A DNA stretch of 46,947 nt. It comes from a virus. Lineage: Duplodnaviria > Caudoviricetes. The position numbers and the translations under genes were made by a program. The stretch's first letter is position 1; every line of letters starts with the position of its first letter. Shown one piece after another: positions 1,284 to 35,370 of the stretch. The notes beneath the pieces were generated by a model. That model worked only from the letters and a program-made list of their open reading frames with translations, did not search any database and had not been told where the DNA came from. The DNA lies in IMG/VR virus record IMGVR_UViG_3300034147_000130, positions 1-46,947 of that record. One strand, written 5' to 3'.

Positions 1284-3280
1284 GCCGCCCCCGCTAGCTG
1301 GACCTCAAGAGCCTCGATGCGCTGCAGAGCGTTCTGGAGGGCACAGGCGACCACGGCCAGGTCGGCCCCGTCGCTGCGGTTCTTGCGATCCTCCAGACCA
1401 AAGAGGTCGTGGACCCTGTAGGTCTCGTGGCCCAGGGCGTAACCCTTCTGCTTGCGGTGGACGGCCGTCTCCTCGACGGCTTTGGCGTGGTTGGAGCGCG
1501 CCTCGACCTCCCGCTGCGCCTTCAGGGCGGCCGCCTCCTTGGCTGTCTGCGCCCCCACTCCCGCCTCGACCGCAGCCTTCGCGTCCTTGTCGCTCAGGGC
1601 CTTGGGCGCGGGCGGGTCGGGCATCCCCCGCTCCTGCGCGTACTGCGGGGCCTTGTAGCTGTAGGAGAGCCAGTCGGTGCCCAGCACAGCCTCGGCGCAG
1701 GACGCCCCGTCGAGCGGGGCGAAGTCCTCCTTCAGGGACGCCTCCGACCCCACTACCGGGGCCGAAGAAAAGTACGCCGTAACCCAGCGGTAGCTGGGGT
1801 GCCCGAAGTACATGGTGGCGTCCGCGCCGGGGTGGACGTAGCCCACACAAGTGATGATCGTGCTGGTGTTCATCGACCCGACGCTGAGCGCCCCGCCGGG
1901 GGCGGCCAGGTTCAGGGTGGAGGCCCCGGTGAGGTTGTTGGAGTAGACGTTCAGCCAGGCGTTGGACGGCGCCCCGCAGGTAATCGATAACTGCCCGGCG
2001 GGCAGGAGCGTCTCGTCCAGGTACAGCCCGACCAGGGAGTAGATGGTGCGCCAGACGGTGGTGCCCGTGGGCAGCCGACGCCAGCGCAGGTGCCCGCTGG
2101 GGTCCATGATGATGTCGGCCACGTCGTTGAAGTTGAAGAGTTGGGTGTTGGACGCGGCGGCGGCCCGGAAGCCGTTGGCGTGGACGGCCAGCCACTTGAG
2201 GGTGGTCGCCCCGAGATTGGTGACACCGTCCCGGGCGGGAGTGACGTAGTTGCCCCCGCTGTCCAACTCCAGCGACCCGGAGGCGTAGAGGCGGGCGTTG
2301 GACGCGGTGGACGTGCCCTCCGTGATCCAGAAGCGTTGCGCCTGTCCGGCCATCTGGCAGACCAGGGCGGCCGTCCCGCTTGGGTTGGCGATGTTGAGGG
2401 CGGCCGTCGCCCCCGCGTCCTGGGCGAGGTTGATCTGGCCGGTGTTGGTGATCCCCATCCGCAGGGCGATGTCGGCCGTCGAGGTCTGCGCCCGGGTGAA
2501 GAAGTTGATGTCCGCCCCGACGACCGCGCCCGTCCCCACCCGCTGGACCTGCATCACGGCCAGCATCTTCTCGCCCACCGTCAACTGGTCGTCAATGAAG
2601 GAGATACGTCCGGCCAGGGTGGCCCCGGTGTACCCCGCCCCCCGATTAGAGAACTCGATCACGGCTGCGCCTGAGGGCGGGGCGCCGGCCAGGGAGAGGA
2701 AGGAGTTGGTGGCGGTGAGTCCGGCGGGCATGGCCGCGAGGGTGCCCACCGCGATCCCGCTGGGCACCCGCAGCGCGTTGGCCGCGAGGCGGGCGATGAA
2801 GGCGTCCGACGCCCCGCTCGGCTTGGCCCCGAACCCGAGGGTGTCTCGGACGACGGGGTCGGTCAGGATCACCCCCGACGCCCCGCTCTCCCGGAGCAGC
2901 AGCCCGGTGCCCTTCGTCCCGGTGGTGATCGCCGCCCCGTCCAGGACGCCGGCGCTGGCCGCGTCGAGGTGGGTGTGCTGGGCGTTCGTCCAGCCGTTGA
3001 TGGTGGGGTTGTTGATGATCGGGGCGGTCAGGGTCTTGTTGGTCAGGGTGGCCGCCACATCCGCCGTGATGGCGTTGTCCAGGGTCACCATGTTGTCGTT
3101 GAGGACGAGGATGTCGGCGGCGTCGACGTACTGGGGCATCTTCAGCCCCAGCTTGGGTGTGGCCTGCACCGTCAGGGGCGTGATCGTGGGCGGGGGCGCC
3201 AGGGGCTGCGCCGACGCCATCCCGGCGGCGATGGCCTCCTGGATCGCGGCGATGACCTCGGGGGAGAGTTCTCCGGCCAC
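1280..3280 (-). CDS. Tail fibre/spike with C-terminal intramolecular chaperone (peptidase S74-like)
   Basis: N-terminal TPKLGLKMP...D...NDN...LD anchor, TLTNKTLTAP repeat, C-terminal SEASLKEDF...WLSYSYK followed by coiled coil LQNALQRIEALE. Confidence 0.8.
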   Translation of the reverse strand: MAGELSPEVIAAIQEAIAAGMASAQPLAPPPTITPLTVQATPKLGLKMPQYVDAADILVLNDNMVTLDNAITADVAATLTNKTLTAPIINNPTINGWTNAQHTHLDAASAGVLDGAAITTGTKGTGLLLRESGASGVILTDPVVRDTLGFGAKPSGASDAFIARLAANALRVPSGIAVGTLAAMPAGLTATNSFLSLAGAPPSGAAVIEFSNRGAGYTGATLAGRISFIDDQLTVGEKMLAVMQVQRVGTGAVVGADINFFTRAQTSTADIALRMGITNTGQINLAQDAGATAALNIANPSGTAALVCQMAGQAQRFWITEGTSTASNARLYASGSLELDSGGNYVTPARDGVTNLGATTLKWLAVHANGFRAAAASNTQLFNFNDVADIIMDPSGHLRWRRLPTGTTVWRTIYSLVGLYLDETLLPAGQLSITCGAPSNAWLNVYSNNLTGASTLNLAAPGGALSVGSMNTSTIITCVGYVHPGADATMYFGHPSYRWVTAYFSSAPVVGSEASLKEDFAPLDGASCAEAVLGTDWLSYSYKAPQYAQERGMPDPPAPKALSDKDAKAAVEAGVGAQTAKEAAALKAQREVEARSNHAKAVEETAVHRKQKGYALGHETYRVHDLFGLEDRKNRSDGADLAVVACALQNALQRIEALEVQLAGAA

Positions 3281-9281: not shown

Positions 9282-10538
9282 CTAGGCGGGACGCTCGCGG
9301 GCCTCGTAGCCCCGCTGGATCAGCCCCCTGACCGTCGACACGTCGGGCGCCCGGGACGGCATGGTGGTGCCGGTCTGCTCCCCGATGGGCACGACGCCGT
9401 TGCCGTTCGAGCGCGGCGCCGGGTTCCCCGTCCGGCCCCACGGCGATCTGCCCGACGCCCGCCCGCGCTCTTCCGCCGCCTGGAGGTCAGCCTTGTGCTG
9501 GTCCTTCAGTTTGGCGATGTCCTGCGCGTGCTTCGTGGCCTGCGCCTGGAGCGCCTCGCCCACCTTCCCCGTCAGCTTGGGGGACTTGGTCGACATGAAC
9601 TCCACGAACTTGGCCAACCCGGTCGCCTCGTCGTCGCCCTCCTCCGGGCCGGCCGCGAGGTACTCCGGGTCGTCGGCGTCCACCTCGAACGCCTGCGCGA
9701 TCATGGTGCTGATGCGTACCGACAGGTCTCGTGCGGCCGCCGCCTCCTGTTCCTCAAGCTCCATCTGCTGGGCGTAGGCCGGAGGGTTCTCGCGCCGTAG
9801 CTGGCGTAGCTGCTCGATCCGCCAGTCCTCCGCGTCGGCCGCCTGGATGCCGTCCGACAGCTTCTCCGAGAGGCGCTCGGCAAGCTGGGCCGGGTTCAGG
9901 TTGGGGTCGGCGCGCAGGCGTGCCACGTCGCGCTTCAACCCGGGCTGCGCCCGGAACGCGCGCTGCCAGCGCTCCGACTTGAACTCCTCGGCCTCGGCCT
10001 GGGGAGCCGGGGGCTGAGTAGCCGGATCGGGGGACGCTGACGACGGGGACGCCTCAGGAGCCGTCGCGCCGGGCCTGGCCGGGGACTCCTCTTTGGGAGG
10101 AGCGGGGGGCCGGGGAGAAGCGCCGGGCCGGGGAGGGGTCGGTGTCGGGGTCTCTTGTACCGCAGGCGTGGGGGGCGCGTCAACCGCCGCGGCCTGTTGG
10201 GCCTCCTGGCGGGGCAGGAAGCGCCCGTCCGGGCCACGCTCCCGAGCCGGCTGCAACTGCACCACCGGGCCTTCCGGCCCCATGGGCGCCGTCCCGTTGG
10301 CCCCGGCCTCCACCGCCGGCGCCTCGCCCTGCTGGGCCTCGCCGTCCTGCATCTCCCGCTGGCGCCCGTACGCCTGGCGGAAGAGGGCCTGGGCGCCCTG
10401 CACGTCGATGGCGCGGGGTTCGACGTTCAGGGGGGCGTCGCCCCCGGTAGAGCGCTGACCCCGGGGGGCAGTCTCCACCGCCGGGGGCGCTGCGGTGGTC
10501 GTCTCGACCGGGGCAGCGTCGGTAGCGGTATCGGACAT
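9282..10538 (-). CDS. Capsid scaffolding protein
   Basis: Acidic/Pro-rich with helical regions, contains RGPDGRF motif, immediately upstream of MCP; AAGGA RBS. Confidence 0.7.
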   Translation of the reverse strand: MSDTATDAAPVETTTAAPPAVETAPRGQRSTGGDAPLNVEPRAIDVQGAQALFRQAYGRQREMQDGEAQQGEAPAVEAGANGTAPMGPEGPVVQLQPARERGPDGRFLPRQEAQQAAAVDAPPTPAVQETPTPTPPRPGASPRPPAPPKEESPARPGATAPEASPSSASPDPATQPPAPQAEAEEFKSERWQRAFRAQPGLKRDVARLRADPNLNPAQLAERLSEKLSDGIQAADAEDWRIEQLRQLRRENPPAYAQQMELEEQEAAAARDLSVRISTMIAQAFEVDADDPEYLAAGPEEGDDEATGLAKFVEFMSTKSPKLTGKVGEALQAQATKHAQDIAKLKDQHKADLQAAEERGRASGRSPWGRTGNPAPRSNGNGVVPIGEQTGTTMPSRAPDVSTVRGLIQRGYEARERPA

Positions 10539-16400: not shown

Positions 16401-18015
16401 TAAGCGCCGAGCGCTCGACGCCCCCGGCGTCGTCCGTCAGGGTGTTGGGGGTGCCGGCGCTCCCGAGGAGTTCGGTGCCCGAGACGGGGCCGGGGGCGAT
16501 GTTCGGCGCCGGGGGCGTCCCGATCTGGGGCATGGGCGCCGGCTCCGGCCCCTGGCTCGTGGCGGGCGAAGGCATGGGCGCTGGGGGCACGTCGGGGACG
16601 CGCTGCTCCCGCTTCCACTTGTCGAAGGCGGCCTGGCTCTCGGCCGTGGGCGGGGGGAGCCGGGACGACCCGGCCACGCCCCCGGCGGGCGCCACCGCCG
16701 AGGGCGTCGGTGCCGAGGCCGGCGCCGGCGACTCCCCCGTGACGCCGGACGGGGCCGCCGAGGCCGGCGCGGGCAGTGTGCCAGACGGGGCACCGGACGG
16801 GCCGGCGGCCTTGCCCCCCTTGCCCGGGGGCAGGGGGTTGACCCCCGGCTGCTGGCCGGCGGTGACCCGGCCCGGGACGAAGTTGCCGGCGGCGCCGTTG
16901 TCCAGCGCCCCCTTGGGGTTGCGGTGCTCGTAATCGAGGTGCGGGCCGGTGGCGTTCCCGGAATCGCCCACCTGACCCAGGAGTTGCCCGCCGCCCACCC
17001 GCTGGCCGGGGACGACCACGATGGAGCCGGCCCGCTGGTGGCTGTAGCGGGCGCTGGTGCCGTCCGCGTAGCGCACGACGACGCTCCCGCCCCAGCCCCC
17101 GTTCTCCTTGGCGTCGCGCCCGGTGCCGGTGCGGCTGTCGCCCCGGGCCTGGTAGACCTCCGCGACCCAGCCGGGCATCTCGGCCACGATGGGCGCGCCG
17201 TAGGGCGCCGTCAGGTCGGAGCCGTTGTTCGTCGGGGCCAGGGGCAGGTCGGACGCCCCGGCCGAGCGGAACTGGGTCGCCCCGAAGGCGTTGGTCACGC
17301 TGCCCGGGCGCACGCCGGCGACGGGCCAGAAGCGCTCGCCCGACGCCTGGGGCTTCCCCGAGGCGACCAGCGGGCTGCCCCCCATGACCTGGGGGGAGAC
17401 GGCCGGACGCTTGGGCTGCGGCCCGCGCACGTAGGTGCGCCCGGCCTTGACCTCGTCGGACACGGGCGCGTCCCGGTTGGCCCGCACCACCACCGTCGTC
17501 CCGGCGGGGCGCTCCCGCACCCGAGCGGGGAGGGTGGGGTTGACCAGGACGCCCGCGCCGGGCCGGCGCGGGGCCACCACCGCCGGGGGCGCCGTGCCCC
17601 CCTTCCCCACCCCGCCGGCGGCGGCGTCCAGGGCGGACATCCCCTCCTTCATCCGCCCCAGGTTGGCGTCGATGTTGCGGGCATAGGTGCCCGGGTTCAG
17701 GGGGCGCTGGGCCTTGGCCGCGATCTGGCCCGGGGTGTCCCGGGGGTTCTTGGCGATGGTCTGGCGCACCTCGGTGGCGGCGCGGTTTGCGGACGCCTCC
17801 ACGTCCATGCGGTCGGCATCCGACCGGCCGTAGCCCCGCCCGGCCTCGTGCTCCTGGAAGGGGCCGACGCTCTTCCCGTTATCCCCCCGAGCGTCGGGGC
17901 GCAGGGCGCTCTCCTGGACGGCGATGGCCACCAGCAGGTCGGGGTCGATGCCCCGCGCCCGGGCCACCCGGCGGATGATCTGCTCGACGCTCTCGCCGGT
18001 GGCCGTGGCCATCAC
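13405..18015 (-). CDS. Virion-associated peptidoglycan hydrolase / ejection protein: lytic transglycosylase + M23-like domain
   Basis: GIDPDLLVAIAVQES...GPFQ (SLT catalytic E); GWGGSVVV...YSH...GQRV..GQLLGQVGDSGNATGPHLDYE (M23). Confidence 0.85.
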   Translation of the reverse strand: MMATATGESVEQIIRRVARARGIDPDLLVAIAVQESALRPDARGDNGKSVGPFQEHEAGRGYGRSDADRMDVEASANRAATEVRQTIAKNPRDTPGQIAAKAQRPLNPGTYARNIDANLGRMKEGMSALDAAAGGVGKGGTAPPAVVAPRRPGAGVLVNPTLPARVRERPAGTTVVVRANRDAPVSDEVKAGRTYVRGPQPKRPAVSPQVMGGSPLVASGKPQASGERFWPVAGVRPGSVTNAFGATQFRSAGASDLPLAPTNNGSDLTAPYGAPIVAEMPGWVAEVYQARGDSRTGTGRDAKENGGWGGSVVVRYADGTSARYSHQRAGSIVVVPGQRVGGGQLLGQVGDSGNATGPHLDYEHRNPKGALDNGAAGNFVPGRVTAGQQPGVNPLPPGKGGKAAGPSGAPSGTLPAPASAAPSGVTGESPAPASAPTPSAVAPAGGVAGSSRLPPPTAESQAAFDKWKREQRVPDVPPAPMPSPATSQGPEPAPMPQIGTPPAPNIAPGPVSGTELLGSAGTPNTLTDDAGGVERSALMLNLDEQGPPAEPLVGAWRSDDMATETPEQRRAREAQQRGILFRPGPGDHPILLQPGATPTPTPTPTQGGSTRPMGAGSTPPPATSPRPGESSSVPAPEATSDTPIGPPGPETTAAQAPPAPKLLQESTGDSPKLKAAKIAANTAAQKLYAAQMERYNSERVVAAYGATPPPEGDPNYAVYSQANATKAAYADPADTAGKRKALEALEKEVAQAQTAVAAAETTNPADAASAAGQPNPATASTRQGQTATDQATGQTMWLNPETGKWEGVGGPKPEARPKVTAHPVQGDGVYFTDDETGQVVNHIPEPTDGKPVLLSGSDGPELLFYDPADGSIYWQQNRGFLNTPTGVASDRRDRYIIRQDKTGKTIVDENPNFDPRSSDTVLVSSTGRSIRLDADGRMVSATDTLTAEEREVYDRRAAAESESAVTKSQSEKFKLEQEQKEAEEWQRIEDAINAGATPAEVRGLVMQAAKSVADFTALQNSETQRQTQLEAGRHNLAEEGFSERTRRTAEVGEARAGVGAYQVATAPYQIAMLAGLSQVTDPRKAAASMNIAPSVFEPVAANYDAQQARQRTIDTQREGVAKQQQEPFTAPYKKPQQQAAPTASQPAGDYSSPTPSAPATPAAAPAAQAQPQAQAAPRTEVETIDLEGEGRPGYARTTYSDGTSEEWQIPLPEQPQPPPEEDEDEGGYFVGGGNGFPPLYVPRRQPPALHPGTGGGGYTPSYGGGAPRRSSKRRRLPVPGKHIIPLEDDWYQTHYDDGAIETWHRSDGSAFEGLGGGGAGFHGEDPPMLRSGYEVGTGGGGGSIWTLPPPASVDVGWGAAQALAQPDPTKQRSQGGMAGGFAGPSPATGGAGGGAYGAGGGEYGAGTGPTFGTVAPATIPSPPSNGQNRAPMWDSATPAAFATSGTGGPSGAAGSSTLFQRGASGSAGGYGITARPATAGGGGAQTGFPGRAQPASGGYYGGPGAPQAMSPLQRLLQQTGVVPMSAGRAVGAPGTV

Positions 18016-21000
18016 CGCACCCCCGCCAGCATCTTAGCGATGGCCGAGGGCTGGGCGCTCTGCTTCTCCCGGCGCTCCTTCTCCGTCTTCGTCGCCTGGG
18101 CGTACTCGAAGCGCTTGGTGCGCTGGGCCAGGGCGCGCTGGCGGGCGGTGGGACGCTGGTTGGGAGGCACCGGCAGGCCCTTGATCGCGGCCTCGTTGGC
18201 CTTGTCCACGGTGCGCGCCGCCTGGGCGATGGTGGTGTCCTCGATGGCGCTCTTGCTGTCCAGGTAGCGCCTCGGGCTGGTCTGCTCCTGGGCGCCCAGC
18301 AGGGGGGAGAGGAAGCGCTCGGCGCCCGACCCGGTGCGCTGGCGCACCTTACCGTAGGCGTCCCGAGCGACGGGCACGTTCTCGGACAGGCCGGGGATGT
18401 TAGCCAGGATGCGCTCGCCCTCGTCCCGGGGGCTGCGGTTAACGCCCGAGGTGGCCCGCTCGACCTCGCGCACGATCCGGGGCACCGCCCGCCCGGTGGC
18501 CTGCTCCTTCCCCACCTCCAGCAGCCCGCCCTCGTCCGACCCGCTGAACTGGCGCCTCCCGCCGGCGAGCACCTCGGACAGGCCCTCGAAGAAGGGCCGG
18601 TTCAGGCTGTACTGGGCCACCGTCGTCACCAGGCGGTTGGCCGCCCGGTAGTAGGCGTCACCGTCCCAGGCTTTGCCGGCGGCCTCGTGGCGGGTGACGA
18701 TGTCGTTGAGGGCGGACGCCTGGGTCAGGGCCGCGTTCAGGCCGGGCACCAGGGTGACCGGCACCCAGCGCCCGCCCACGTTGACCGAGAACGGGGACTT
18801 GTTCTCGGCCCGCCACTGCTTCAACTCCTCCGGGTCGTCCGGCTCCTCGCCGGTGACCCGGATCGTCCCGGTGGCCATGGCCAGCATGAGGCCCATGGAC
18901 AGGGCGCTGCCCATCGTGCCCCGGGCCAGGCGCTCGTACATCTCGGTGCGGTCGAGCGTGGTGCGGGCGCCGCCCCGGTTGGCGGCGATGTCGAAGGCGG
19001 CCTTGCCCAGCCCCAGAGGGCTGCGCTCCAGGTCGTACTTCATCCCGTTGTAGGGGATTTTCCAGAAGGGCACCACCAGGGAGCCGACCACCGGGATTTT
19101 GCTGAACTCGTCCACCGACTTGGACAGGTGGTCGTCTAGCTCCTGGGTCAGGGTGCGGTAGTCCTTGGCCTTCTGCACCCGCTCCGCAATCTCGGCCTTG
19201 GTCAGGGTGGCCTTGCCCTGGGCGCCTCGGTGCTGGGTGCGGGCGTCCAGGGCGGCCTGCTCGGCCGCGCCGGCGGCGTAGCGGGTGGCGGCGTCGAAGA
19301 CGGAGAGCCAGCGGAAGCCGGCGTCCACCCCGTTGGCCAGCTTGCGGTGGAAGACGTTCTTGGGGTCGGGGCGCCCGGGCGCCGAGGTGGCCCCCTGGGC
19401 GCTGGCCGAGGCCGTGGTGTTGGCCTTGTTCAAGCTCTCCTTCATGTGGCGCATCGCCGGCTTGAAGTTCTTGACGTAGCTCTTGAACATCGCCCCGCTC
19501 TCGCGGAAGCTGGGCACATCGGCCCGGCCGGAGCGGTCGACCCCGGTGGCCGTCAGCCCGGCCGCGGCCCGCTCGAAGGGCTGCCAGGCGGCGGTGCCGA
19601 TGTTGCCGGTGAGTTGGCGCAGCAGGCCGTTGGGCGACAGGAGCATGGAGAGCTTGGACGCCGCGCCGGCGGTCTCCCAGCCCGAGGGGGCCGTCTGCGG
19701 GGTTACGCCGCCGGCGGGCGCGGCGGCCGGTTGGCCGGGCGCCCCCGGTTGCCCTCCTGCGCCGCCCGGCGCAGCGCCGCTCGGGGGTCCGGCGGTCCCG
19801 CCGGGAGGGGTGGTTCCTCCGGCTCCGGGGGCAGCGGCGCCTCCGGGGGCGGTGGCGGTAGCCCCTGTGGTTCCTCTGCGAGCGGCGGCGCGCCGCTGTC
19901 GGGAGGCGCTAGCGGCTCGGATGGGGGAGGTGCTGATCCCTCCGAGTCCGGGTCCACCTCCTCGAACGTCGGCAGGGCGTCCGCCAGGCCCGGGTACGTC
20001 CCCAGGGCCACCTCGTACTCCAGTTCCGGTTCCAGCCCCGAGTCCCGCACCCGAATCAGGGCCGAACGAATCTCCTCCGGCGACGCCTGGTCGTGCACGG
20101 CCCGCATCAACCCCGCTCGCATCAACTCCTGGTCGATTGCCTCGTCCGAGTCCGGTTCCGCCAGCCCCCCGCCCGGCCCCGTTCCCAGTTGCTCCGGGTT
20201 GGGTGGCGGTGGCGCCGGAGAGGCCCCCTCGCTCGTGGGCGCCGCCGGGGCCTCTGACCTGGCCACGGGGGGCGCCGGTGGTGCGGTCGTGTCCTCGCTG
20301 GAGGAAGGTGTCCCAGGAGAGGACGGGATCGGGGGCGGGCTGCCCGTTGGGTCCGGCCGGCCCCTTGATCCCGTTGTCGAAGAGGTGCCCCGTCTCGGAG
20401 GCAAGTTGGTCGAGTAGCTCAAAGTCGTTCTCCTGGAGCAGGGTCATGAAGCGCTTGTGCGCGGCGCGCACCTCCAGCGGGACGGCGTTCTGGTTCTCCC
20501 GCAAGCGCTGCGTCCACAGCGGGTCGGCGTCGTGGTCGTTGTGGGTAATCTCGTTGTGGGTCAGTTCGTGGACGATGTCCTCAGCGAACTGGGCGGCGAT
20601 CTTGTAGGCGACGGCCTTCTTCCAGGCGGTGCCGGTGGGGTAGACCGTGCGGTCGATGCGCTCGCCCCGGCGGGTCAGGTCGTTGACGGCCTGGGTGAGG
20701 GCGGCGTGGGGATTGAAGGCCACCCGGGACGGCTTGCCCTGGTTGCGCCCCTCGGTCGGGGCCACGTTGACGGCCAGCAGCGTCCCGGCGGTCAGGATGC
20801 CGTAGGGTTCGGCCCGCTCGAAGCGCTGGGCATCGGCCGTCCCCCGGGCCTGGGCGTGGGCGATGAGGGCCTGCCGCACGGCGAGGAAGGCGTCCCGCCA
20901 CTCCCCCACCAGGAACGAGTGGTTGGCCCGGGCCTGGCCGGCCGGCACCCCGCCGGCCTGACCGTTGGTCACCCGCTGGACGGCGCCGTCGTGGGCCGAG

Positions 21001-24000
21001 CCGTCCCCCTTCTTGTAGAGGTTGACCCAGCGCTGCCCGCTGCCGGACGGGCCGACCGGCGGGGCGGCGTCGAGCAGCCGGTTGGTGCGCCGGCGGGCCT
21101 CCCGTTCGGGGTTGAGGCCCAGCGCCGCGCCGGTGATGACGTTCCCGCTGACGCCCCCTAGCTCGTCTTGCTCGTCGGGGAGGGGGGTGAGGCCGAGTTC
21201 GGCGTTGGCCTGGCCGACGACGCCGTTGGGGTCGGGGCCGACGCTGCCGGGGCCGGTAGCCGGTCGCGGAGTCGCTGGCCCAGGGCTGGTAGGGGGGCCG
21301 ACCCGGCCGGCCTCCCCTGCTCCGCTTCCCGCGCCGCGTACGCCCTCGCCTCCTGCTCCGTCGTCGGGTCGCCCGGCGTCCCCGGGTAGCCCATTCGGCG
21401 CGAGGCCGCGTTCAGCTTGTACCGCGTCAGCCACCCCGCCAGGCCCACCGGCTTCGCCAGGTGCGCCTTCCACCACGCCTCGAACTGCTCCGGCGACGTT
21501 ATCTCCGGCGCCGGCGTCGTCTCGGAGGGCGTATTGCTCGACGGCCTCGATCTGGTCGTCCTCGGTCCAGTCCTTGGGTCCCCAGGTGCCCTCATCGACA
21601 TTGACCATCTCCTCGACGTTCTTGTTGAACAGGCTGGTGTAGTTGAAGATGGCCTGCTGGCGGAACTTCCCCGCCAGCATCAGCGCCGTCGCCTTGTCCG
21701 CCACCGGGATAGACACGTCGAGGTTGATCGCCCGCTTACCCCGGTCGACCGTGCCGTCCGGTCGGCGCGGCTCCCCGGCCCACGTCCCGATGGCCAGGGT
21801 GGGGAAGGCGTTGAACAGGCGCCGCGCCTCGGCATGGAACTGGGCCAGGCGGAAGCCCCCGCTGGTCTCATTGAAGTCGTGGGTCTGGCCCACGTCGTCG
21901 CTGTAGTCCGGGAAGACGCCCACCATCCACACGTCCTCGCCCCGGTCGACGCGGTCCTGCACCGCCTTGGGCACGCCCCCGGCCGCGCCCGGCCACACCG
22001 TCGACCCCCGGGCCTCGCCCGTGGTCTGGTTGTGGGCCAGCATCTGGGCGCGGTAGTTGGCCTCGTTCTTGGGCCACAGCCCCGCCATGGGGTCGTCAAG
22101 CTGCTCGGCCCGCCGGTACGGCGCCGAGTCGTTGAACTCCGCGACGCCCCGCCCGCCGGGATCGCCCAGGTGGAGCGCCTCCCGCTGGCGCATCGTGGTG
22201 TCGACGGTCTGCTGGATGGACGACTCGACCTTGCCCGTCTTCTTGTCGAACCGGATCAGGCCCTTGCCCACCGTGCCGACGACGTTGCCGTCCTTGTCGG
22301 TCAGGTCGAGCGAGAAGCCGGCGTCCTGGTCGGCCGACCAGATGTCCCCGGTGTTGGGGCCTTTGCCGGCCAGTTGCTTGGCCAGGTTCCAGCCCCAGCG
22401 TCGCCCGATCTGGTCCTCGGTGAAGAGCCGGAAGGGCACCTCCCGCTGGCCGTAGCGCACCCGGGCGGTGCCCACCTTCTCGGGCACCTTCCAGGGGTCA
22501 AGCTCCCAGGCGGCGGCGTGCTTGACCTCGATCACCTCCTGGGAGCCATCCTTGTAGGTGACCAGGAAGTCGGGAGCGAAGATGCCCTCCTGCCCGGCGT
22601 CCATGATCCCGCCCGGCCGGGTGATGGGGTGGAAGCGCCGCTCCGGCTTGATCTGGAAGCGCACCCGCCCCCGCTGGGACAGACTCTTCGTCCAGGTCTC
22701 CACGTTGGGGTCGCTGTCCAAGCGCACGGCCAGCAGCAACTCGTACAGGCTGTCGAAGTGCTGCTCGACCCCCGTCTTCTTGGAGGTGTAGGCGATGCCG
22801 GCGTTGGGGTCGTCGGTCTCCGACTTGATCGCGCCCCGCTCCTGGCCGGTGCGCTTGAGTTGCTCGCCACGGGGCAGGTTGGCCTCGGACAGCACGTTGA
22901 GCGCCGCCTCCAGCACGTCCTCGGGGATACCGGCCTGGTCGGCGGCGTAGGTGGTCGACTTGCCGGACAGGTCGTAGACCCGCAGGCCCTCGATCACCGC
23001 GTCCAGGCTGGCGCCCTTGGGGTCGAAGCCCTTGGCGGCCGTGGCGTTCTGCAGGGCGCGCTTCTCGATGGCCTTGCGCTCCCGCTCGGCCACGGTCTCG
23101 TCCGCCTTGATCCGTTGGTTGACGGCGCTCCTGGCGGCGCGCTCGGCGGCCCGGGCGTCCCGCTCCCGGAAGGCGTCCTCCAGCTTGGCCCGCGCCGCCG
23201 GCGTCTTGGCCGCGGCCAGGCGGGACTCGTCGTTGGCCTTCTGGGCGGCGGCGCGCCCGCGCTCCCTGGCCGCGGCCTCGTCCGCCTTGACCTGCTCCCG
23301 CGCGGCCCGGCCCGGCGCCTCCCGGGCCTCCCGCTCGGCGGCCTTCTGGGCCGACTCGGCGCGCCGCTGTTCGAGCACCCGCCGGTTGGCCCCCGGGGCC
23401 GTGGCCTCCAGCCTCTCCCGGTAGGGGTACGCCGGCAGGGGCGAGGTGTCCAACCGGCCCATCGGCTCAGCCGGCTCGGCCGTGGTGGGCGCGTTCTCCC
23501 AGCGGTAGTGCACCCCGGTGACGGGGTCGTCCGGCTTGAACAAGTCGCCCAGCCGGCCCCGACTGGCGGCCTGCCAGTAGAGGAAGTCGGTGCCGGTCAG
23601 CAGCGTCCCCGGCTCGGGGGGCAGGATGACGACCTCATCCCCCTCCTTGATCCCAAGCTCCTCGGCCATCTTGGCGTCGGCCACCATGGTGGGCCAGCCG
23701 CCCTCGGGGGTGGGGAAGGCCGGCGCCCGGCCCGGCTCGCCCCGGCCGGCGAAGCGCCCCACCCCGGGGACGGTGCCGTCGTCCGTCCACCCCGGCCCCA
23801 GGGGGGCGTTGCCGTACTCACCGGGCACGGCCTTCAGCGGGCCGGTGCTGGGGGGCGTCCAGCCCGCCTTCATGGGGTACAGGGGATGGTCGCTGCCGGC
23901 GCGGGCGGTGTTGCCCTCCACGCCCCGCAGCTTCTGCCTGATCTGCATCCGGCCCTGGGCGTCCGGGCCGACCGCGCGGAAGCCCGCCGAGCCGGCAAGC

Positions 24001-27000
24001 TCGGCGTCCCGGTCCATCCCGCCGGCGACGGCCTCGTCCTCAGCCTCGTCGGTGACCTCTTCCTCCGGCGCGGCCTCGGCCTCGGCCTCGTCCCCCACCT
24101 CGCCTGGCTCAGTCGGGGTCATTTCCGAGGTGGCGATGCCGGCGTCGCCCTGCTCACCCGGCTCGCCCCGGCCCACCTGGTCGGGCAGGCGCCCCTCGTC
24201 CCAGGCGTCGAGGTCGTCCGGTGTGCCGGGCGGGGCCTCCTCGCCGGCCTGCTCGTAGTCCTGGCGGGTGCGCTCGCGCGCGCCCTGGTCGGCCGGCGCC
24301 ATCTCGTGGTAGAGGGCGAAGCCCTCCTGCACCCGCTTGCGCAGGGCGTCGTTGATGGGCAGCGCCCAGGCTTCCAGGTCGGGGTCTTCTGAGGGGTCGT
24401 GGCCCTCCGGCTCCTGGAGCCTGGTCTTCTCGACCTGCACCCCGAACTGCTTGGCGATGCGGTTGGCGATGGAGACCATCGTCTTGTCGTACTGCTGGAT
24501 GAAGACCCGCCCGGTGGAGTCCATCACCATGATGTCGTCGCCGGCGAGCACGGCCATCCCGTCCGGGCCGACGTTGGCCGGGTCGGTCAGGTGGCGGGCG
24601 GCCTCAGCCCCCACGTAGTCGGCCACCTTCTGGGGGGGCGCTTCGTACGTGCGGTAGCGTCCGGCGGTGCCTGGTTCCCCCCGGGGGAGGACGTGCAGTT
24701 GCTTCCGGGCCGCGTCGTAGCGCACCTCCTCCGCGATCCGGCCCGCGCTCCAGCGCCGGGCGATCACCTGGCCGGTCGACCAGGACATGGCCTCCGCACC
24801 CCGGTCGACGGCGTCCCGGAGGTGGCGCTCCACCAGCTTCTCGATGACGGTGTTGTCCGGGAAGGGGGCGCGCGGGTAGCCCGGCGGGATGTTCGTGGCC
24901 GCCGTATCGAGGTGCTGCTGCGCCCCGTCCATGGCGGTGTAGAGCGCCCGGGAGGCGCCGTCCAGGATGGTGCCCTCGGTCACGCCCTCGGCGTCCGAGC
25001 CGAGTTCGGCCTCCTCCTGGCGGTAGGCGGCCTGGGCGCGCTGCTCCAGGTCCAGGCGCCGGCGCTCGAACTCCTTGACCTGGGCGCGGTTGTAGGCGAT
25101 CCAGTCGGCCTGGGCGTCCTCACCGCCGTACTTGGCGTGCAGGTCGCCCCGCAGGATGTGCAGGTCGCGGTAGGCCAGGGCGTACTCCACCGCGTCGGGG
25201 TTCAGGCTGGCCGGCGGGGCCTGATCCCGCTGGGCGATCTTCTGGGCGTAGGCGCTGTTGGGATCGTCCCGCTCCACGGCCGGGTCCTGGCCGGAGGCCC
25301 GCATCCGCTTTTCGATGCGCTGGATGCTCTCCATGGCGTAGATGACCCGGTGCGCCCACTGCTCGGCGTCCTCCTTGGCCCGGCGCAGCGTGGTGCGCGA
25401 GGTGCCGGTGATGGGGTCGGGCTGCTGGCGCAGCGTCCGCGCCATCTCGCCCTCGGCCCGGGCGACGTGCTCGTACTGGTCGCCCAGGTGGCGCACGTCG
25501 GCGGCGATCCCGGCGGGCACCTCCTGGTTCCAGGCGGCGGCCATGGCCACCCGGTCCCACGTCCCGCTCTTGCGCCCCCGCTGCTGGATGTCCGACTGGT
25601 CCTCGTTGCTGTGGACGGTGGTGCGCCCGTCCGCCAGGGTGTCGTCGTGGGTGCGCCCGGAGCCGAAGATGCCCTCGCGCCCGCCGAAGTGGGCGCCCAC
25701 GCTGAACTCGGCCACGTCCCGGCGCTGGCCCGCAAGCTCCCCGGACATGACGCGGGCCGCGTCGTCGGACTGCTTGCGCATCTGGAGCAGCGACTCGCGG
25801 GGGTTGTTGGCCCGCTTGGCGCCGGCGCGCAGGGTGTAGTTGCCCTGGCCCGGGCCGCCGTAGTAGGCGTGCTCGGGCTGGCCCTCGCGCCGGGGGGCGT
25901 ACTCCTCCTTCAGCTTCTGGCTGGCGTCGACCGCGGCGTAGATGCGCCGGCGCAGGGGGCGCACCGCCTCATTCAGGTCGCGCCGGGCCGCCTCGCTCGC
26001 GGCGATGCCCCGCCCGCCCGAGGCCAGCAGCAGGCTGACGTTGTGGGTGAAGTCGTCCAGGTTGTGCAGCCACGCCTGGGCGACCTCCTCGGGCGTGGCG
26101 TCCGGGCCGACCGCGTCCCCGGTCATGTAGTCCTCGGTGGGCGGGGCGAGCAGCCGGTCGTAGATGCCCTCTCGGAAGGCGTGCTCCTCGTTGGTGCGCA
26201 CCGGCCCGGTGGCGGCGTCGAGGTGGGGGCCGGCCAGGTCCTTCATGTTCTGGCGGATGTCCGGGTCCTGCCCGTACATCGTGGCCCGCTCGACGTGGCC
26301 CTGCACCTCGGCCCGGATGCGGGCCACGTCCTCGGGCGTCGAGGCCCCCACCCGGCGGAAGCCCAGCACGCTCTCGGCCAGGGGCAGGCGGTTGGTCTGG
26401 GCGCGGTCGATGAGGTCGTCGCGCGCGATGGGGGTGCCCGCCTGCTCGGCCGCGTCCAGCATCTCCCCGATGCCGGTCCAGAAGAGTTCCTCCTTCTTCA
26501 CCCCGTTGCCCAGCAGCAACTGGCGCACCTGGGCGGCCTGCATCTTGGGCTGGCGGAACTTCTGCTGCAGCACCCGCTCCATCTGCGAGTACCACACCCC
26601 GGGGCGCTCGCCGGCGGGGGCCTTGCCGCCTAGCTCGGGGCGCATGAGGGGCGGCTCGGGCACATCAGTGCGTGGCCTCGCCGGAACGGTCTCGCCGGGC
26701 TGATGGGGCTGGGGGGTGATCGAGACCGGGGCGGCAGGGCCTCCGGTGAGGAAGGCCAGGCGCCGGGTCAGGGCCTGCTCCTGCTCGGTGGTGAGCAGCC
26801 CCGTCCTCGTCATCCCCGGGAGCGAGTGCCCCATCTCGTCCAGCGTGCTCCGGCCCTCTTGGTTCTGGGCGGCGGCGGCCATCTCCATCTGGTCGAGCGT
26901 GGAGGCGTAGGCGTGGTTCTGGAGTTGTGTGCCCGCCGTCCGCAGGGCCTCGTCCGGCTCCGTCAGCATCGGGGCCTCGGTGATGTCGGCCTGGTCAGCG

Positions 27001-29435
27001 ATCTGCTGGTCGACGCCCATGTGGGCGCGCCGGCGGGTCAGGTAGCCCCGCAGGTCGAGGGCGTGCTGGGGCGTGATCTGGCCCCGGTTGGCGAACTCGT
27101 CCACCCGCTCCTGGAAACTCTGGAACTGCTCGGGCCGGGCGGCCTCGCTGATCTGGCGGTGCAGGCTGGTGTAGAGGCCCAACTGCGACGCCGTCTGGGC
27201 CGGCTCGCCGGGGCGGCCGTGGAAGCGCCGGCGCTCGGTGCCCCGGATCGGATCGAGCACCTGGACGCCACCCGGCACGGGCGCGCCCTGGGCGGGCTGC
27301 ATCTCGTGCGCCGCGATCCCGGTTTGCGCTTCAACCCTCGAGGGTTCTGCTTGGGCACCGGGCTGCGACCAGGCGCGCACGGCCTCGCGCAGGGGCGCCG
27401 CCTGCGCCGGGGTGAGGTCGCCCTGCTCCAGCGCGTTGGTGATGTCGTGGATGACGGCCACCACGTCCATCTCGTCCTGGGCGCGGTCGAGGTCGGCCTG
27501 GATGGCAGCCACCAGGCGGGGGTTGCCGTTCTCGCCCTGGGGCAGCCCGCCGATGCGCCCGGGCAGGGCCGCGCCGGGCACGTCGACCCGGCCCACGTCC
27601 TGCAGGCCCTCCAGGCGCTCGGTCGCCGGACCAGCTCGATTCTGGGTGACGGCACCCAACTCCTCGGGGGAGCCGGCGGTGCCCCCGGCGCGCACATCGG
27701 CGCGGCCGGTGGCGATGCGGGTGCGGGGGCCGACCTGGCCCCGGTCCTCGTCCTCCATCGGGCCGCCCGCGGCCTGGCCGCGCAGTCGCCGTAGCTCCCG
27801 CTCGTACTCGATGCGGGCCTGGGCGCTGGTGATGGCGGCCTCGCCCCCGACCCGCGCCAGCCCGGCGGCGGTGCGCGCGGCCGGGTTGTCCACGATCCCG
27901 CCGGCGGTGCGGAAGCTGTCCCAGGCGTCGAGCGCGTTGCCGGCGACGGTGAGCGGGGACTCGCCCCGAGCGACGCCCTGCTGCACCGCCCCGGCGGCGC
28001 CGGCCGCGCCGGCGACCTGGCCCACCACCTCGGCGCCCCGAGAGGCCCGCCTGATCCGGTCGGCCTGTTGGCCCAGGCGGGCCACGTCCAGGGCCTCGCC
28101 GGGGTCGGCCACGTCCACGATGTTGCCGGCCAGGTTGGCGTACTCCGGCTCGACGCCCTGCCCGATGAGGTAGTTGGTGACCGCCCCGGGGCCGGCCAGG
28201 CGGGCCGACTGGAGCGCACCCTTGAACGGGGCCATCATGGTCAGCAAGGCGGTGAGCAACTCCGGCCCGGCCAGGATGCGGTCGAAGGCGGACTGCTCCC
28301 GGCCGTACAGGTCCTTCCCCACCAGGGCCTTCATCCCGGCGTTGAGGGCCTGCGCCGGGGAGCCGACCCACTGGGCGACGGCGCCCTCGGCCGCCAGGTA
28401 GCCCCCCTGCTGGCCCTGGCCCAACTCGGGGGGCACGTCCGCGCCCCGGGCCTGGGGGTGGTTGGTGGCCCGCCCGCTGGCCTGCTCGACGTAGCTGCCC
28501 ACGTCGGCCAGGCCCTTGCCGTAGGCGGCGTCCTCGTCGGCCATGGGGTCGATGCGCCCGCCCTGCCGGTCGGCCTCTTCCTCTAGCCCCTTGGTGGTGA
28601 GCGGGGCCTCGGGCAGGTCGCGGGTCAACTCCTGGGGGTCGGGCCGGTAGTCGGCGTCCCCGCCCAGTTCCCGGGTGGTGGCGGTGGCGCCCTCCTGGAA
28701 GCCGGTCTCCACGTCCCGCTGGCGGTCTCTGGCCGCCTGGGCCTCGGCCTCCTGCTGGCCCACCGTGCGCCCGCGCGGCTCCGGGCTGATGCGCGCCCCG
28801 GTGTCGTCAAACTGGGGCGGGCCTTCGTCCGCCGGCGCGGCGCGGCGCGCGACCTCGGCCGCCTGCTCCTGCTGGCGCTGGGCCTGCCACGCCGGCGTGC
28901 CCCGCTGCTCGGGTAGCTCGGGCTGAGCCGGCGGGATGGGGCGCTGGGGTGCCGGTTCTGGCTCGGACTGGGGCAGGGCCTGCACCGGGGCGTTGATGGG
29001 CTGCTGGGGCTGGGGCGCGTCGTAGGCGCTCTGGCCCAGGTCGGGCTGCGGCCCGGTCTGGTAGGGGTTCTGGGGCGCCTGGTCGTCCTGGCCGGGGTAG
29101 GGGCGCCAGTCCGCGCCCGTGGCGGGGGCTGCCTCGGGCTGCTGGGTGAGTTGCTGGAGGTCCTGGCCCATGCGGGCCACCGGGTTGGCCTGGGTCAGGG
29201 CCTGGCCCGCGGCGGTCTTGGCCTGGTCGAACCACTCGCGCGCCTGGGCGATGCGGTCCTGGTTGCGCTGCTGGGCGACCTTCTGCTCCTCGAAGAGTTG
29301 GCGCGCCTCTTCGAGCCGGCGCTCCCGCTCCTGCTGCTCCTTAAGGGCCTGCTCCTCGCCCTCGTCCACCACCGCCTGCTGGGAGCCGCGCAGGTTCAGG
29401 GCGCCGGAGACCGTCCGCCAGAAGCCGTCAGCCAC
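18012..29435 (-). CDS. Giant polyvalent virion protein (3807 aa): TnsA-like nuclease, SAM-lyase-like, HExxH peptidase, LPD38-like C-terminus
   Basis: Uninterrupted ORF with GGAGG RBS. Motifs FDSLYE..LDSDPNV..W / PDFLV.YKDG / IEVK; IGTW...LDVS...QQAIF; IVHELTH; PFWKIPYN...ERSPLG, SVNVGGRWV, IPGLSENVPVARDAYG. Confidence 0.85.
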   Translation of the reverse strand: MADGFWRTVSGALNLRGSQQAVVDEGEEQALKEQQERERRLEEARQLFEEQKVAQQRNQDRIAQAREWFDQAKTAAGQALTQANPVARMGQDLQQLTQQPEAAPATGADWRPYPGQDDQAPQNPYQTGPQPDLGQSAYDAPQPQQPINAPVQALPQSEPEPAPQRPIPPAQPELPEQRGTPAWQAQRQQEQAAEVARRAAPADEGPPQFDDTGARISPEPRGRTVGQQEAEAQAARDRQRDVETGFQEGATATTRELGGDADYRPDPQELTRDLPEAPLTTKGLEEEADRQGGRIDPMADEDAAYGKGLADVGSYVEQASGRATNHPQARGADVPPELGQGQQGGYLAAEGAVAQWVGSPAQALNAGMKALVGKDLYGREQSAFDRILAGPELLTALLTMMAPFKGALQSARLAGPGAVTNYLIGQGVEPEYANLAGNIVDVADPGEALDVARLGQQADRIRRASRGAEVVGQVAGAAGAAGAVQQGVARGESPLTVAGNALDAWDSFRTAGGIVDNPAARTAAGLARVGGEAAITSAQARIEYERELRRLRGQAAGGPMEDEDRGQVGPRTRIATGRADVRAGGTAGSPEELGAVTQNRAGPATERLEGLQDVGRVDVPGAALPGRIGGLPQGENGNPRLVAAIQADLDRAQDEMDVVAVIHDITNALEQGDLTPAQAAPLREAVRAWSQPGAQAEPSRVEAQTGIAAHEMQPAQGAPVPGGVQVLDPIRGTERRRFHGRPGEPAQTASQLGLYTSLHRQISEAARPEQFQSFQERVDEFANRGQITPQHALDLRGYLTRRRAHMGVDQQIADQADITEAPMLTEPDEALRTAGTQLQNHAYASTLDQMEMAAAAQNQEGRSTLDEMGHSLPGMTRTGLLTTEQEQALTRRLAFLTGGPAAPVSITPQPHQPGETVPARPRTDVPEPPLMRPELGGKAPAGERPGVWYSQMERVLQQKFRQPKMQAAQVRQLLLGNGVKKEELFWTGIGEMLDAAEQAGTPIARDDLIDRAQTNRLPLAESVLGFRRVGASTPEDVARIRAEVQGHVERATMYGQDPDIRQNMKDLAGPHLDAATGPVRTNEEHAFREGIYDRLLAPPTEDYMTGDAVGPDATPEEVAQAWLHNLDDFTHNVSLLLASGGRGIAASEAARRDLNEAVRPLRRRIYAAVDASQKLKEEYAPRREGQPEHAYYGGPGQGNYTLRAGAKRANNPRESLLQMRKQSDDAARVMSGELAGQRRDVAEFSVGAHFGGREGIFGSGRTHDDTLADGRTTVHSNEDQSDIQQRGRKSGTWDRVAMAAAWNQEVPAGIAADVRHLGDQYEHVARAEGEMARTLRQQPDPITGTSRTTLRRAKEDAEQWAHRVIYAMESIQRIEKRMRASGQDPAVERDDPNSAYAQKIAQRDQAPPASLNPDAVEYALAYRDLHILRGDLHAKYGGEDAQADWIAYNRAQVKEFERRRLDLEQRAQAAYRQEEAELGSDAEGVTEGTILDGASRALYTAMDGAQQHLDTAATNIPPGYPRAPFPDNTVIEKLVERHLRDAVDRGAEAMSWSTGQVIARRWSAGRIAEEVRYDAARKQLHVLPRGEPGTAGRYRTYEAPPQKVADYVGAEAARHLTDPANVGPDGMAVLAGDDIMVMDSTGRVFIQQYDKTMVSIANRIAKQFGVQVEKTRLQEPEGHDPSEDPDLEAWALPINDALRKRVQEGFALYHEMAPADQGARERTRQDYEQAGEEAPPGTPDDLDAWDEGRLPDQVGRGEPGEQGDAGIATSEMTPTEPGEVGDEAEAEAAPEEEVTDEAEDEAVAGGMDRDAELAGSAGFRAVGPDAQGRMQIRQKLRGVEGNTARAGSDHPLYPMKAGWTPPSTGPLKAVPGEYGNAPLGPGWTDDGTVPGVGRFAGRGEPGRAPAFPTPEGGWPTMVADAKMAEELGIKEGDEVVILPPEPGTLLTGTDFLYWQAASRGRLGDLFKPDDPVTGVHYRWENAPTTAEPAEPMGRLDTSPLPAYPYRERLEATAPGANRRVLEQRRAESAQKAAEREAREAPGRAAREQVKADEAAARERGRAAAQKANDESRLAAAKTPAARAKLEDAFRERDARAAERAARSAVNQRIKADETVAERERKAIEKRALQNATAAKGFDPKGASLDAVIEGLRVYDLSGKSTTYAADQAGIPEDVLEAALNVLSEANLPRGEQLKRTGQERGAIKSETDDPNAGIAYTSKKTGVEQHFDSLYELLLAVRLDSDPNVETWTKSLSQRGRVRFQIKPERRFHPITRPGGIMDAGQEGIFAPDFLVTYKDGSQEVIEVKHAAAWELDPWKVPEKVGTARVRYGQREVPFRLFTEDQIGRRWGWNLAKQLAGKGPNTGDIWSADQDAGFSLDLTDKDGNVVGTVGKGLIRFDKKTGKVESSIQQTVDTTMRQREALHLGDPGGRGVAEFNDSAPYRRAEQLDDPMAGLWPKNEANYRAQMLAHNQTTGEARGSTVWPGAAGGVPKAVQDRVDRGEDVWMVGVFPDYSDDVGQTHDFNETSGGFRLAQFHAEARRLFNAFPTLAIGTWAGEPRRPDGTVDRGKRAINLDVSIPVADKATALMLAGKFRQQAIFNYTSLFNKNVEEMVNVDEGTWGPKDWTEDDQIEAVEQYALRDDAGAGDNVAGAVRGVVEGAPGEAGGPGGVADAVQAERGLAPNGLPGDAGRPDDGAGGEGVRGAGSGAGEAGRVGPPTSPGPATPRPATGPGSVGPDPNGVVGQANAELGLTPLPDEQDELGGVSGNVITGAALGLNPEREARRRTNRLLDAAPPVGPSGSGQRWVNLYKKGDGSAHDGAVQRVTNGQAGGVPAGQARANHSFLVGEWRDAFLAVRQALIAHAQARGTADAQRFERAEPYGILTAGTLLAVNVAPTEGRNQGKPSRVAFNPHAALTQAVNDLTRRGERIDRTVYPTGTAWKKAVAYKIAAQFAEDIVHELTHNEITHNDHDADPLWTQRLRENQNAVPLEVRAAHKRFMTLLQENDFELLDQLASETGHLFDNGIKGPAGPNGQPAPDPVLSWDTFLQRGHDRTTGAPRGQVRGPGGAHERGGLSGATATQPGATGNGAGRGAGGTGLGRGNRPGVDASGVDAGRARPGVAGGDSFGPDSGAGLGAGTGTGVRGGPGDVPGPGGRPADVRGGGPGLGGISTSPIRAASASRQRRAAARRGTTGATATAPGGAAAPGAGGTTPPGGTAGPPSGAAPGGAGGQPGAPGQPAAAPAGGVTPQTAPSGWETAGAASKLSMLLSPNGLLRQLTGNIGTAAWQPFERAAAGLTATGVDRSGRADVPSFRESGAMFKSYVKNFKPAMRHMKESLNKANTTASASAQGATSAPGRPDPKNVFHRKLANGVDAGFRWLSVFDAATRYAAGAAEQAALDARTQHRGAQGKATLTKAEIAERVQKAKDYRTLTQELDDHLSKSVDEFSKIPVVGSLVVPFWKIPYNGMKYDLERSPLGLGKAAFDIAANRGGARTTLDRTEMYERLARGTMGSALSMGLMLAMATGTIRVTGEEPDDPEELKQWRAENKSPFSVNVGGRWVPVTLVPGLNAALTQASALNDIVTRHEAAGKAWDGDAYYRAANRLVTTVAQYSLNRPFFEGLSEVLAGGRRQFSGSDEGGLLEVGKEQATGRAVPRIVREVERATSGVNRSPRDEGERILANIPGLSENVPVARDAYGKVRQRTGSGAERFLSPLLGAQEQTSPRRYLDSKSAIEDTTIAQAARTVDKANEAAIKGLPVPPNQRPTARQRALAQRTKRFEYAQATKTEKERREKQSAQPSAIAKMLAGVR
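19703..20422 (-). CDS. Nested +1-frame gene B inside the giant protein (239 aa, acidic helical core)
   Basis: AGGAG (20434-20430), 7 nt, TTG start, TAA stop. Core DEAIDQELMRAGLMRAVHDQASPEEIRSALIRVRDSGLEPELEYEVALGTYPGLADAL is protein-like while the main frame here is a Gly/Arg linker. Confidence 0.7.
   Translation of the reverse strand: MSYSTNLPPRRGTSSTTGSRGRPDPTGSPPPIPSSPGTPSSSEDTTAPPAPPVARSEAPAAPTSEGASPAPPPPNPEQLGTGPGGGLAEPDSDEAIDQELMRAGLMRAVHDQASPEEIRSALIRVRDSGLEPELEYEVALGTYPGLADALPTFEEVDPDSEGSAPPPSEPLAPPDSGAPPLAEEPQGLPPPPPEAPLPPEPEEPPLPAGPPDPRAALRRAAQEGNRGRPANRPPRPPAA
21158..21601 (-). CDS. Nested +1-frame gene A inside the giant protein (147 aa)
   Basis: GAGGAG (21614-21609), 7 nt, ATG start, TAG stop. 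Core EITSPEQFEAWWKAHLAKPVGLAGWLTRYKLNAASRRMGY...EQEARAYAAREAE uses GC-ending codons. Confidence 0.72.
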   Translation of the reverse strand: MSMRAPGDPRTGPRTTRSRPSSNTPSETTPAPEITSPEQFEAWWKAHLAKPVGLAGWLTRYKLNAASRRMGYPGTPGDPTTEQEARAYAAREAEQGRPAGSAPLPALGQRLRDRLPAPAASAPTPTASSARPTPNSASPPSPTSKTS

Positions 29436-34926: not shown

Positions 34927-34969
34927 GCCCCCGCGCTGCGTCAACAGCCGGGGGCGTGACACCAGGAGG
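34927..34969 (+). promoter_or_regulatory. Hairpin plus RBS upstream of HNH gene
   Basis: GCCCCCG-CG-CTG-CGTCAA-CAG-C-CGGGGGC stem-loop followed by GGAGG. Confidence 0.55.
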
Positions 34970-34977
34970 TGACCCTG

Positions 34978-35370
34978 ATGCGCCCCCATCTTGCCATAGC
35001 GCGCCTGATGCGCCAGACCGTCTTCGACCACAGCCCCGGTGGCTGCTGGCGGGGTCTGGGGTGCTTTCGGGACAAGTACGGCTACGCCCGCTACTGCGGT
35101 CGCTTCCTGCACCGCTGGTCGTGGCTCATGTGGAAGGGCGTCATCCCCAAGGGGCAGAACGTCCTGCACCACTGCGACGTGCCCGACTGCTGGCGCCCCA
35201 GCCACCTGTACCTGGGCACACAGCGTGAGAACAACCTCGACGCCTACGCTCGCAACCGCCGGCGCCGCGACTGGGGCACCTACTGGGGTGACCCGGGCAA
35301 ACCCCCGCCCAACCGTCACCAGCGCGTCCACCCTTCTCGACCGGGGGACCCGAAAGCACCCCCACTGTAA
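34978..35370 (+). CDS. HNH homing endonuclease (antisense, between terL and portal)
   Basis: GCW..G...YGY...HR.SW....G.IPKG..VLHHCDVPDC.RPSHLYLGTQREN. GGAGG then ATG at 34978; overlaps the terL 3' end by 55 nt. Confidence 0.9.
   Translation: MRPHLAIARLMRQTVFDHSPGGCWRGLGCFRDKYGYARYCGRFLHRWSWLMWKGVIPKGQNVLHHCDVPDCWRPSHLYLGTQRENNLDAYARNRRRRDWGTYWGDPGKPPPNRHQRVHPSRPGDPKAPPL

Follow-up and report, generated by a model that had tools for sequence, protein, structure and literature searches.

In polymorphic toxin systems, a small cognate immunity gene begins right behind the enzymatic domain. Phage genes may also lie entirely within other genes, as in lambda, where Rz1 is a complete +1-frame gene with a Pro-rich product inside the larger, same-strand late gene Rz, and the two products are known partners (PMC6139136). 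The phage polyvalent proteins with HEXXH metallopeptidase (MPTase) domains (Iyer et al. 2017, PMC5512222) are very large, multidomain proteins encoded among virion genes, whose HExxH domains have been proposed to self-process, and S-adenosylmethionine (SAM) lyases are toxic when expressed (PMC7877911). Here we analyzed the 46,947-nt virus record IMGVR_UViG_3300034147_000130 (the window, i.e., the whole record; linear and ~47% complete according to CheckV), in which the gene of a giant multidomain virion-type protein of 3807 aa (18012..29435, minus strand) contains two nested open reading frames (ORFs), designated A and B. We consider it highly probable from sequence comparisons that A and B are real conserved nested genes translated by internal initiation on the late message, and that the Gly/Arg linker in which each lies is its by-product.

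Both nested ORFs are located within Gly/Arg-rich linkers of the giant gene, on the same (minus) strand and in the +1 frame. ORF A (21158..21601; 147 aa, basic, with a conserved core at ~21263-21512) starts with an ATG at 21601 created from a main-frame AAT, has a second ATG created from GAT, and ends with a TAG created from CTA. ORF B (19703..20422; 239 aa, acidic, with Pro-rich arms and a folded core at ~19937-20170) starts with a TTG at 20422 created from a main-frame TTT and ends with a TAA created from GTA. An AGGAG Shine-Dalgarno (SD) motif is found 7 nt before each start (21609..21613 for ORF A and 20430..20434 for ORF B, both on the minus strand), the latter within the final helix of the HExxH domain. 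Across nine further genes of the contig, AAT, GAT, CTA, TTT, and GTA account for 4.8%, 9%, 4.3%, 1.5%, and 2.6% of the codons of their amino acids, respectively. The positions, starts, stops, and SD spacing of the two ORFs are all as described in the original prediction, and its claim that the starts and stops are made by rare main-frame codons agrees with usage of 1.5-9%. The +1 frame of the giant gene has 42 ATG/GTG/TTG codons, and only six alternative-frame starts in the whole gene have an SD motif of at least 5 nt at 4-11 nt, a spacing of 7 nt being present only in A and B. Because open +1 stretches arise by chance elsewhere in the giant gene, one of them 398 codons long, ORF length alone provides no evidence for genes. 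Most +1-frame stops are TGA (45 of 50), A ending with TAG and B with the sole TAA. No promoter, terminator, or Rfam match was detected.

The window has a GC content of 72.5%, and GC at third codon positions (GC3) in the main frame is 0.96-0.97 outside the overlaps. Over the 3807 codons of the giant gene, only two segments (aa ~2640-2720 and ~3060-3220) lose the coding signal in the main frame, and both show it in the +1 frame instead, as had been anticipated for the two linkers and nowhere else. GC3 in the A core is 45/73 in the main frame versus 69/72 in the +1 frame, and in the B core 31/73 versus 64/72. Among 20,000 random synonymous recodings, none came near the observed values (77/114 against a minimum of 98, and 102/161 against a minimum of 142), and the +1 codon use in both cores is typical of the genome. 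In the other genes scanned, including Gly/Pro-rich ones of 1536 and 264 aa, there was no positive +1 coding score above that of the gene's own frame, with the sole exception of one ORF that had been called in the wrong frame throughout.

The same two frame switches are present in a diverged phage (L005; 44-67% identity by domain), which has the same domain order and whose main frame is open across the nested ORFs; in both the window and L005, A and B start at a domain end. The A homologue (L005:5972-6547) has an ATG at the position aligned with the window start and AGGA 8 nt before it, and the B homologue (L005:7346-8137) has an ATG in place of the window's TTG (with Tyr, TAT, standing for Phe, TTT, in the main frame), with GGAGG 9 nt before it at the aligned place. 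The +1-frame stops of L005 are also mostly TGA (28 of 32), and the A and B homologues end with TAA and TAG, respectively. A homologue that keeps the +1 ORFs with their starts and SD motifs, of the kind that the original prediction had proposed to look for, was thus found. Identity between the window and L005 is higher in the +1 frame than in the main frame for the A core (64% versus 50%), the B core (65% versus 58%), and the B tail (60% versus 42%), whereas in flanking domains the +1 frame falls below the main frame (55% versus 61%, and 42% versus 51%). In addition, the first 14 codons of ORF B are nearly invariant in the +1 frame. A second +1-biased stretch was observed in the longer arm of the L005 ORF B (L005 7860-7990), where the main frame is protein-like too.

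Contigs from 8 of the 24 listed sequencing runs were compared with the window. Those of six other runs (X2, X6, X11, X3, X5, and X7) span both cores with zero gaps, which excludes an assembly frameshift pair, the artifact that had been named as a possible refutation. Six rows with indels trace to individual contigs of X6 and X11, including at least one 103-nt partial match with five gaps; because longer contigs of X2 and X6 span these places without gaps, the indel rows were taken as foreign DNA. In a close relative (L001, 97% identical), the main frame is open and all nine indels in the aligned part are multiples of 3, with a further 62-nt gap at the end. No change was found in 1164 nt of the ORFs versus 13 in 2419 flanking nt (Fisher p 0.013), in a region of low divergence overall. 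All four strain variants in the A and B cores are silent in the +1 frame and change the main frame, three of the four coming from one 151-nt contig with a depth of 2.1, and one variant in the ORF A tail changes both frames; outside the ORFs, 12 of 15 variants are silent in the main frame. Considering that an assembly frameshift pair is excluded and that the starts and SD motifs are kept in the diverged L005, A and B are very likely translated genes.

Protein A has an isoelectric point (pI) of 10.8 and an 85-residue conserved core with a pI of 9.7. Protein B begins with an N-arm rich in Pro, Ser, and Thr that also serves as main-frame sequence, followed by a core with a pI of 4.1, an arm rich in Pro and Glu, and a basic motif conserved at the C terminus (PP-PR-A-RRA---GNRGR; 19736..19795, minus strand) that is kept in 3/3 aligned homologues; the main-frame peptide over this motif differs between the window and L005. 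A model of the B core, based on an alignment of three sequences, has three helices plus a short one (pLDDT 87.5, pTM 0.76), from which the core is confidently predicted to fold as a small acidic helical bundle of no recognized family. Neither A nor B matched a known structure or was assigned to a Pfam, PHROG, or NCBIfam family in profile searches, and the B core had no Foldseek match at E 0.001 or better and no usable match in the ESM Atlas. A CMD/AhpD-like fold of the B core was also considered and rejected, with the best VIA Z of 7.0 and a root mean square deviation of 5.7 over 81 falling below the chance level of helical bundles. Patterns of the two ORFs matched only the L005 contig in IMG/VR, and three ORF B records were found among 8000 scored candidates; the third B protein (P0007, 54%) keeps the core and the C-terminal motif.

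ORF B follows a HExxH (zincin-type) metallopeptidase-like domain (20376..21110, minus strand; pI 8.6). The HExxH motif claimed by the original prediction is indeed there (HELTH at 20556-20570, aa 2956) and is kept in all six proteins compared, namely those of the window, L005, and four more distant giant proteins (P0001-P0004; blastp to P0001, E 4e-13). Profile and sequence searches with this domain gave no match to PF18818, Pfam, or PDB sequences, the alignment consisting of the window and L005 only and thus giving a shallow profile. Complex predictions of the HExxH domain with the B core, run without controls, scored 0.83, 0.00, and 0.00, with the median under the mark, and are evidence in neither direction. 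ORF A follows a domain (21552..22100, minus strand; pI 4.9; 58% identical in L005) that is possibly SAM-lyase-like: its ESM Atlas score is 0.85 to a cluster in which 41% of the members carry PF23780, which is a lead only, and its structural model (pLDDT 38) is unusable. Relatives of the two domains were not found in IMG/VR (single-sequence patterns), INPHARED, or proteins of near length; the SAM-lyase-like domain had 0 matches among 1.84 billion representatives, and scans of GTDB genomes found nothing.

Scoring of 1872 candidates recovered the four distant giant proteins, which have the C-terminal and HExxH domains in common with the giant protein of the window. In P0002, a B-like peptide lies directly behind the HExxH domain (E 0.002 pairwise), in frame as deposited and with a different architecture; considering that its record has several shadow-frame-like stretches, the in-frame peptide may be either a slip or a natural fusion. 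In P0001, P0003, and P0004, the linker behind the HExxH domain has hardly any residues encoded by codons with A or T at the first position, which is what a GC3-rich +1 gene would impose. The +1 frames of P0001-P0004 were assessed by codon compatibility of the protein sequences, a test that recovered A and B in two self controls with scores of 110-119 and found neither in these proteins, where the scores did not exceed 32. The C-terminal motif of B scored best in the expected linker of P0002 (30.9; background at most 29.8) and of P0001 (25.4, within background), and the first helix of A scored best in the expected linkers of P0003 and P0004 (19; background at most 15.3), both being hints only. 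After the stretch compatible with the first A helix, the main frame of P0003 (aa 2150-2200) and P0004 (aa 2294-2345) is a helical protein-like peptide with no Gly/Arg linker, which might reflect either a shorter nested ORF or another arrangement. P0001 (aa 2436-3031) and P0002 (aa 1424-2035) carry an inserted GHKL (HATPase_c) domain ahead of the HExxH domain; this GHKL domain is absent in the window, L005, P0003, and P0004, and its insertion represents domain shuffling between the two linkers. A dipeptide "shadow" score was also tried and picked out linkers in L005 and P0001-P0004; it was not used because it overlooked both linkers of the window itself and so failed one positive control.

It might be argued that A and B are not genes and that the pattern instead reflects low-complexity linkers, a constraint at the level of RNA or DNA, remnants of dead genes, or misassembly, since long +1 open stretches are common in the GC-rich giant gene and no homologue of A or B was found beyond this phage group (IMG/VR patterns, scored candidates, and GTDB genome scans). 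However, the gap-free independent assemblies, the genome-typical +1 codon use with no such +1 score in other scanned genes, the protein-level conservation, and the fold of the B core make this explanation very improbable. Ribosomes might instead reach the +1 frames by programmed frameshifting and produce a shortened giant protein that ends in an A or B peptide. Both +1 frames are open at a domain end, a sensible place for a truncated product, and the B-like peptide of P0002 is in frame with the giant protein, although in a record with shadow-frame-like stretches. Against this, the SD motifs stand at initiation distance, the start codon changes from TTG to ATG at the same position, no slippery run is shared by the aligned start regions (by eye), and the near invariance of the first 14 B codons is in the +1 frame, so that frameshifting appears improbable, if slightly less so than the absence of genes. 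If A and B are genes read from their own starts, they might be independent accessory cargo, i.e., late or virion proteins with their own targets (host factors, DNA, or virion parts) that occupy permissive slots and borrow the transcription of the giant gene, or they might guard, i.e., bind and restrain, the enzyme domain immediately upstream. We regard the guard function, which the original prediction put forward in the form of domain-specific inhibitors or chaperones, as a plausible prediction, though short of probable, and independent cargo as nearly as likely. The codon switch, the SD motifs, starts, and stops, and the conservation in L005 apply equally to cargo; the linkers of P0001, P0003, and P0004 are equally skewed behind the HExxH domain with no detectable B core, a pattern that a slot occupied by different genes over time would produce; no partner accompanies the nuclease domain of the giant protein; and the embedded form of Rz/Rz1 gave nothing functional beyond coding economy (PMC6139136). 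However, the start and SD motif of ORF B lie inside the last helix of the peptidase, 75 codons ahead of the folded B core and at the same place in both genomes, the residues at this site in P0001-P0004 (E-x-x-[Y/S]-[E/G] or one residue longer) are compatible with the same start signals, and a B-like peptide remains behind the HExxH domain in P0002, all of which are less readily explained by cargo.

The suggestion that A and B guard their neighboring domains is based on their position, the B start signals in the last helix of the peptidase, the presence of B behind the HExxH domain in three giant proteins, the opposite charges of each ORF and its upstream domain, the proposed self-processing by such peptidases, and the toxicity of SAM lyases; the charges (pI 4.1 versus 8.6 for the B core and its domain, and 9.7 versus 4.9 for the A core and its domain) lend it weak support. 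Ribosomes would start internally on the late message and release free proteins A and B. Acidic B would maintain the HExxH peptidase in an inactive state up to packaging or injection and prevent early cutting of the polyprotein or host proteins, basic A would shield the acidic SAM-lyase-like domain, and neither would travel with the injected giant protein. Since its last helix contains the B start signals, the peptidase domain would carry the nested gene with it whenever domains are shuffled. Several observations weigh against this picture. The TnsA-like nuclease is the domain most obviously capable of harm, and the codon scan showed no nested ORF immediately after it. The SAM-lyase identity proposed in the original prediction keeps the Atlas score as an unproven lead and gained no Pfam or PDB sequence match and no hidden Markov model match to PF23780. 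The B core was not detected by codon compatibility behind the HExxH domain of P0001, P0003, and P0004 (scores at most 32, i.e., background, in a test of low power at 30% identity), and fold searches with the B core found no match to any known inhibitor. Disordered linkers are the sole cheap sites for overprinting, so a position behind a domain would be expected under any function. Finally, the ratios of nonsynonymous to synonymous polymorphism (pN/pS) between the window and L005 in the four overlap segments (1.2-2.3 in the main frame and 0.14-0.74 in the +1 frame) point in the same direction as the other evidence for coding but form a weak test, because true-frame controls gave 0.78-0.99 and the C-terminal control favored the wrong frame (0.99 versus 0.81). 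A doubtful but far-reaching extension is that the linker after each enzymatic domain of an injected polyprotein contains, in another frame, an inhibitor gene for that domain, the start signals of this gene being in the last helix of the domain, that domain and guard shuffle as a unit, and that the Gly/Arg linkers of many giant phage proteins are shadows of a large class of unannotated inhibitor genes.

The giant gene sits amid genes for terminase, the major head protein, and an SLT/M23 protein, and tail genes are also present in the window. Residues 3419-3567 of the giant protein match the internal virion protein family PHROG 6651 (E 4.7e-7), and it matches a T7-like internal virion protein in tblastn (E 7e-11); from the PHROG match and the gene context, we infer its packaging and its injection along with the DNA. 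Its conserved C-terminal domain (18012..19658, minus strand) is a family marker with 37-41% identity to P0001-P0004 and 48% to L005, and the TnsA-like endonuclease domain (22416..22607, minus strand) matches PF08722 over the cut-off (E 1.5e-6), with no +1 codon switch directly behind it. Compared with L001, the window is nearly identical at 18000-22500, and substitutions at ~24000-27900 are clustered in blocks, the 26500-27000 bin alone containing 105, and are accompanied by in-frame insertions of up to 165 nt; these block-wise differences imply that N-terminal segments of the giant gene likely recombine among close strains. Elsewhere, a 133-aa ORF on the opposite strand (34969-35370, plus strand) between the terminase gene and a 962-aa gene contains what we take to be an HNH-like motif (HHCD...HL...TQRENN), the adjoining 3' end of the terminase gene (~35600-35320) shows atypical codon use, and a 418-aa gene (9282-10538) has a brief dip of the coding score in all frames at 10118-10193 with no positive alternative frame.

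Compared with known systems, the giant protein fits the description of phage polyvalent proteins, being very large, multidomain, and encoded among virion genes, with HExxH and nuclease domains, and domain sets also differ between its homologues (P0001 and P0002 add a GHKL ATPase); in contrast to polyvalent proteins, it has no match to PF18818 or PF18857. In the main text of Iyer et al. 2017 (PMC5512222), the word "overlapping" is absent and none of seven "immunity" passages concerns cognate inhibitors of polyvalent domains. With regard to phage SAM lyases (Svi3-3, which is a small trimer, and T3 SAMase; PMC7877911), ESM features give PF23780 clusters as the nearest to the domain upstream of ORF A (0.85), and a G-x-aromatic, an acidic residue, and a Gln occur in the same order (by eye). 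By eye, Gly56, Glu69, and Gln104 of Svi3-3 map to G, D, and Q, and W, D, and Q stand at Y58, E69, and E105, with other spacing in both cases; E69 is critical in vitro (PMC7877911). Unlike Svi3-3, this domain is embedded in a polyprotein and had no profile match. Titles and abstract beginnings yielded no published account of overprinting or gene nesting within the genes of giant or internal virion proteins, nor of intragenic antitoxins of this kind. Because gene callers list either the giant or the nested gene and not both, proteins of this type are mostly absent from catalogues. If genes are often hidden in the Gly/Arg linkers of giant virion proteins, these linkers would offer a simple rule for finding them, and if A and B are cognate guards, they would explain how a polyprotein of harmful enzymes can be made and packaged without harming the factory cell or being cut too early and would supply new enzyme-inhibitor pairs; the nested region is small enough for cloning tests. 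As in toxin-immunity pairs, A and B begin directly behind a domain in both the window and L005, which does not apply to the nuclease domain; here, however, an internal domain is followed by a small gene lying in another frame of the same gene, and toxicity and neutralization are predicted. A and B appear to be a known kind of gene overlap in a setting for which these sources gave no account. Like lambda Rz1 (PMC6139136), they are complete +1-frame genes with Pro-rich products in a larger same-strand phage late gene. They differ from Rz1 in being two nested genes in an 11.4-kb multidomain virion gene rather than in the gene of an inner-membrane spanin, and since both contain no cysteine and hence no lipobox, they are not Rz1-type lipoproteins. 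Rz and Rz1 are known partners, and for A and B the corresponding partnership with the giant protein is predicted.

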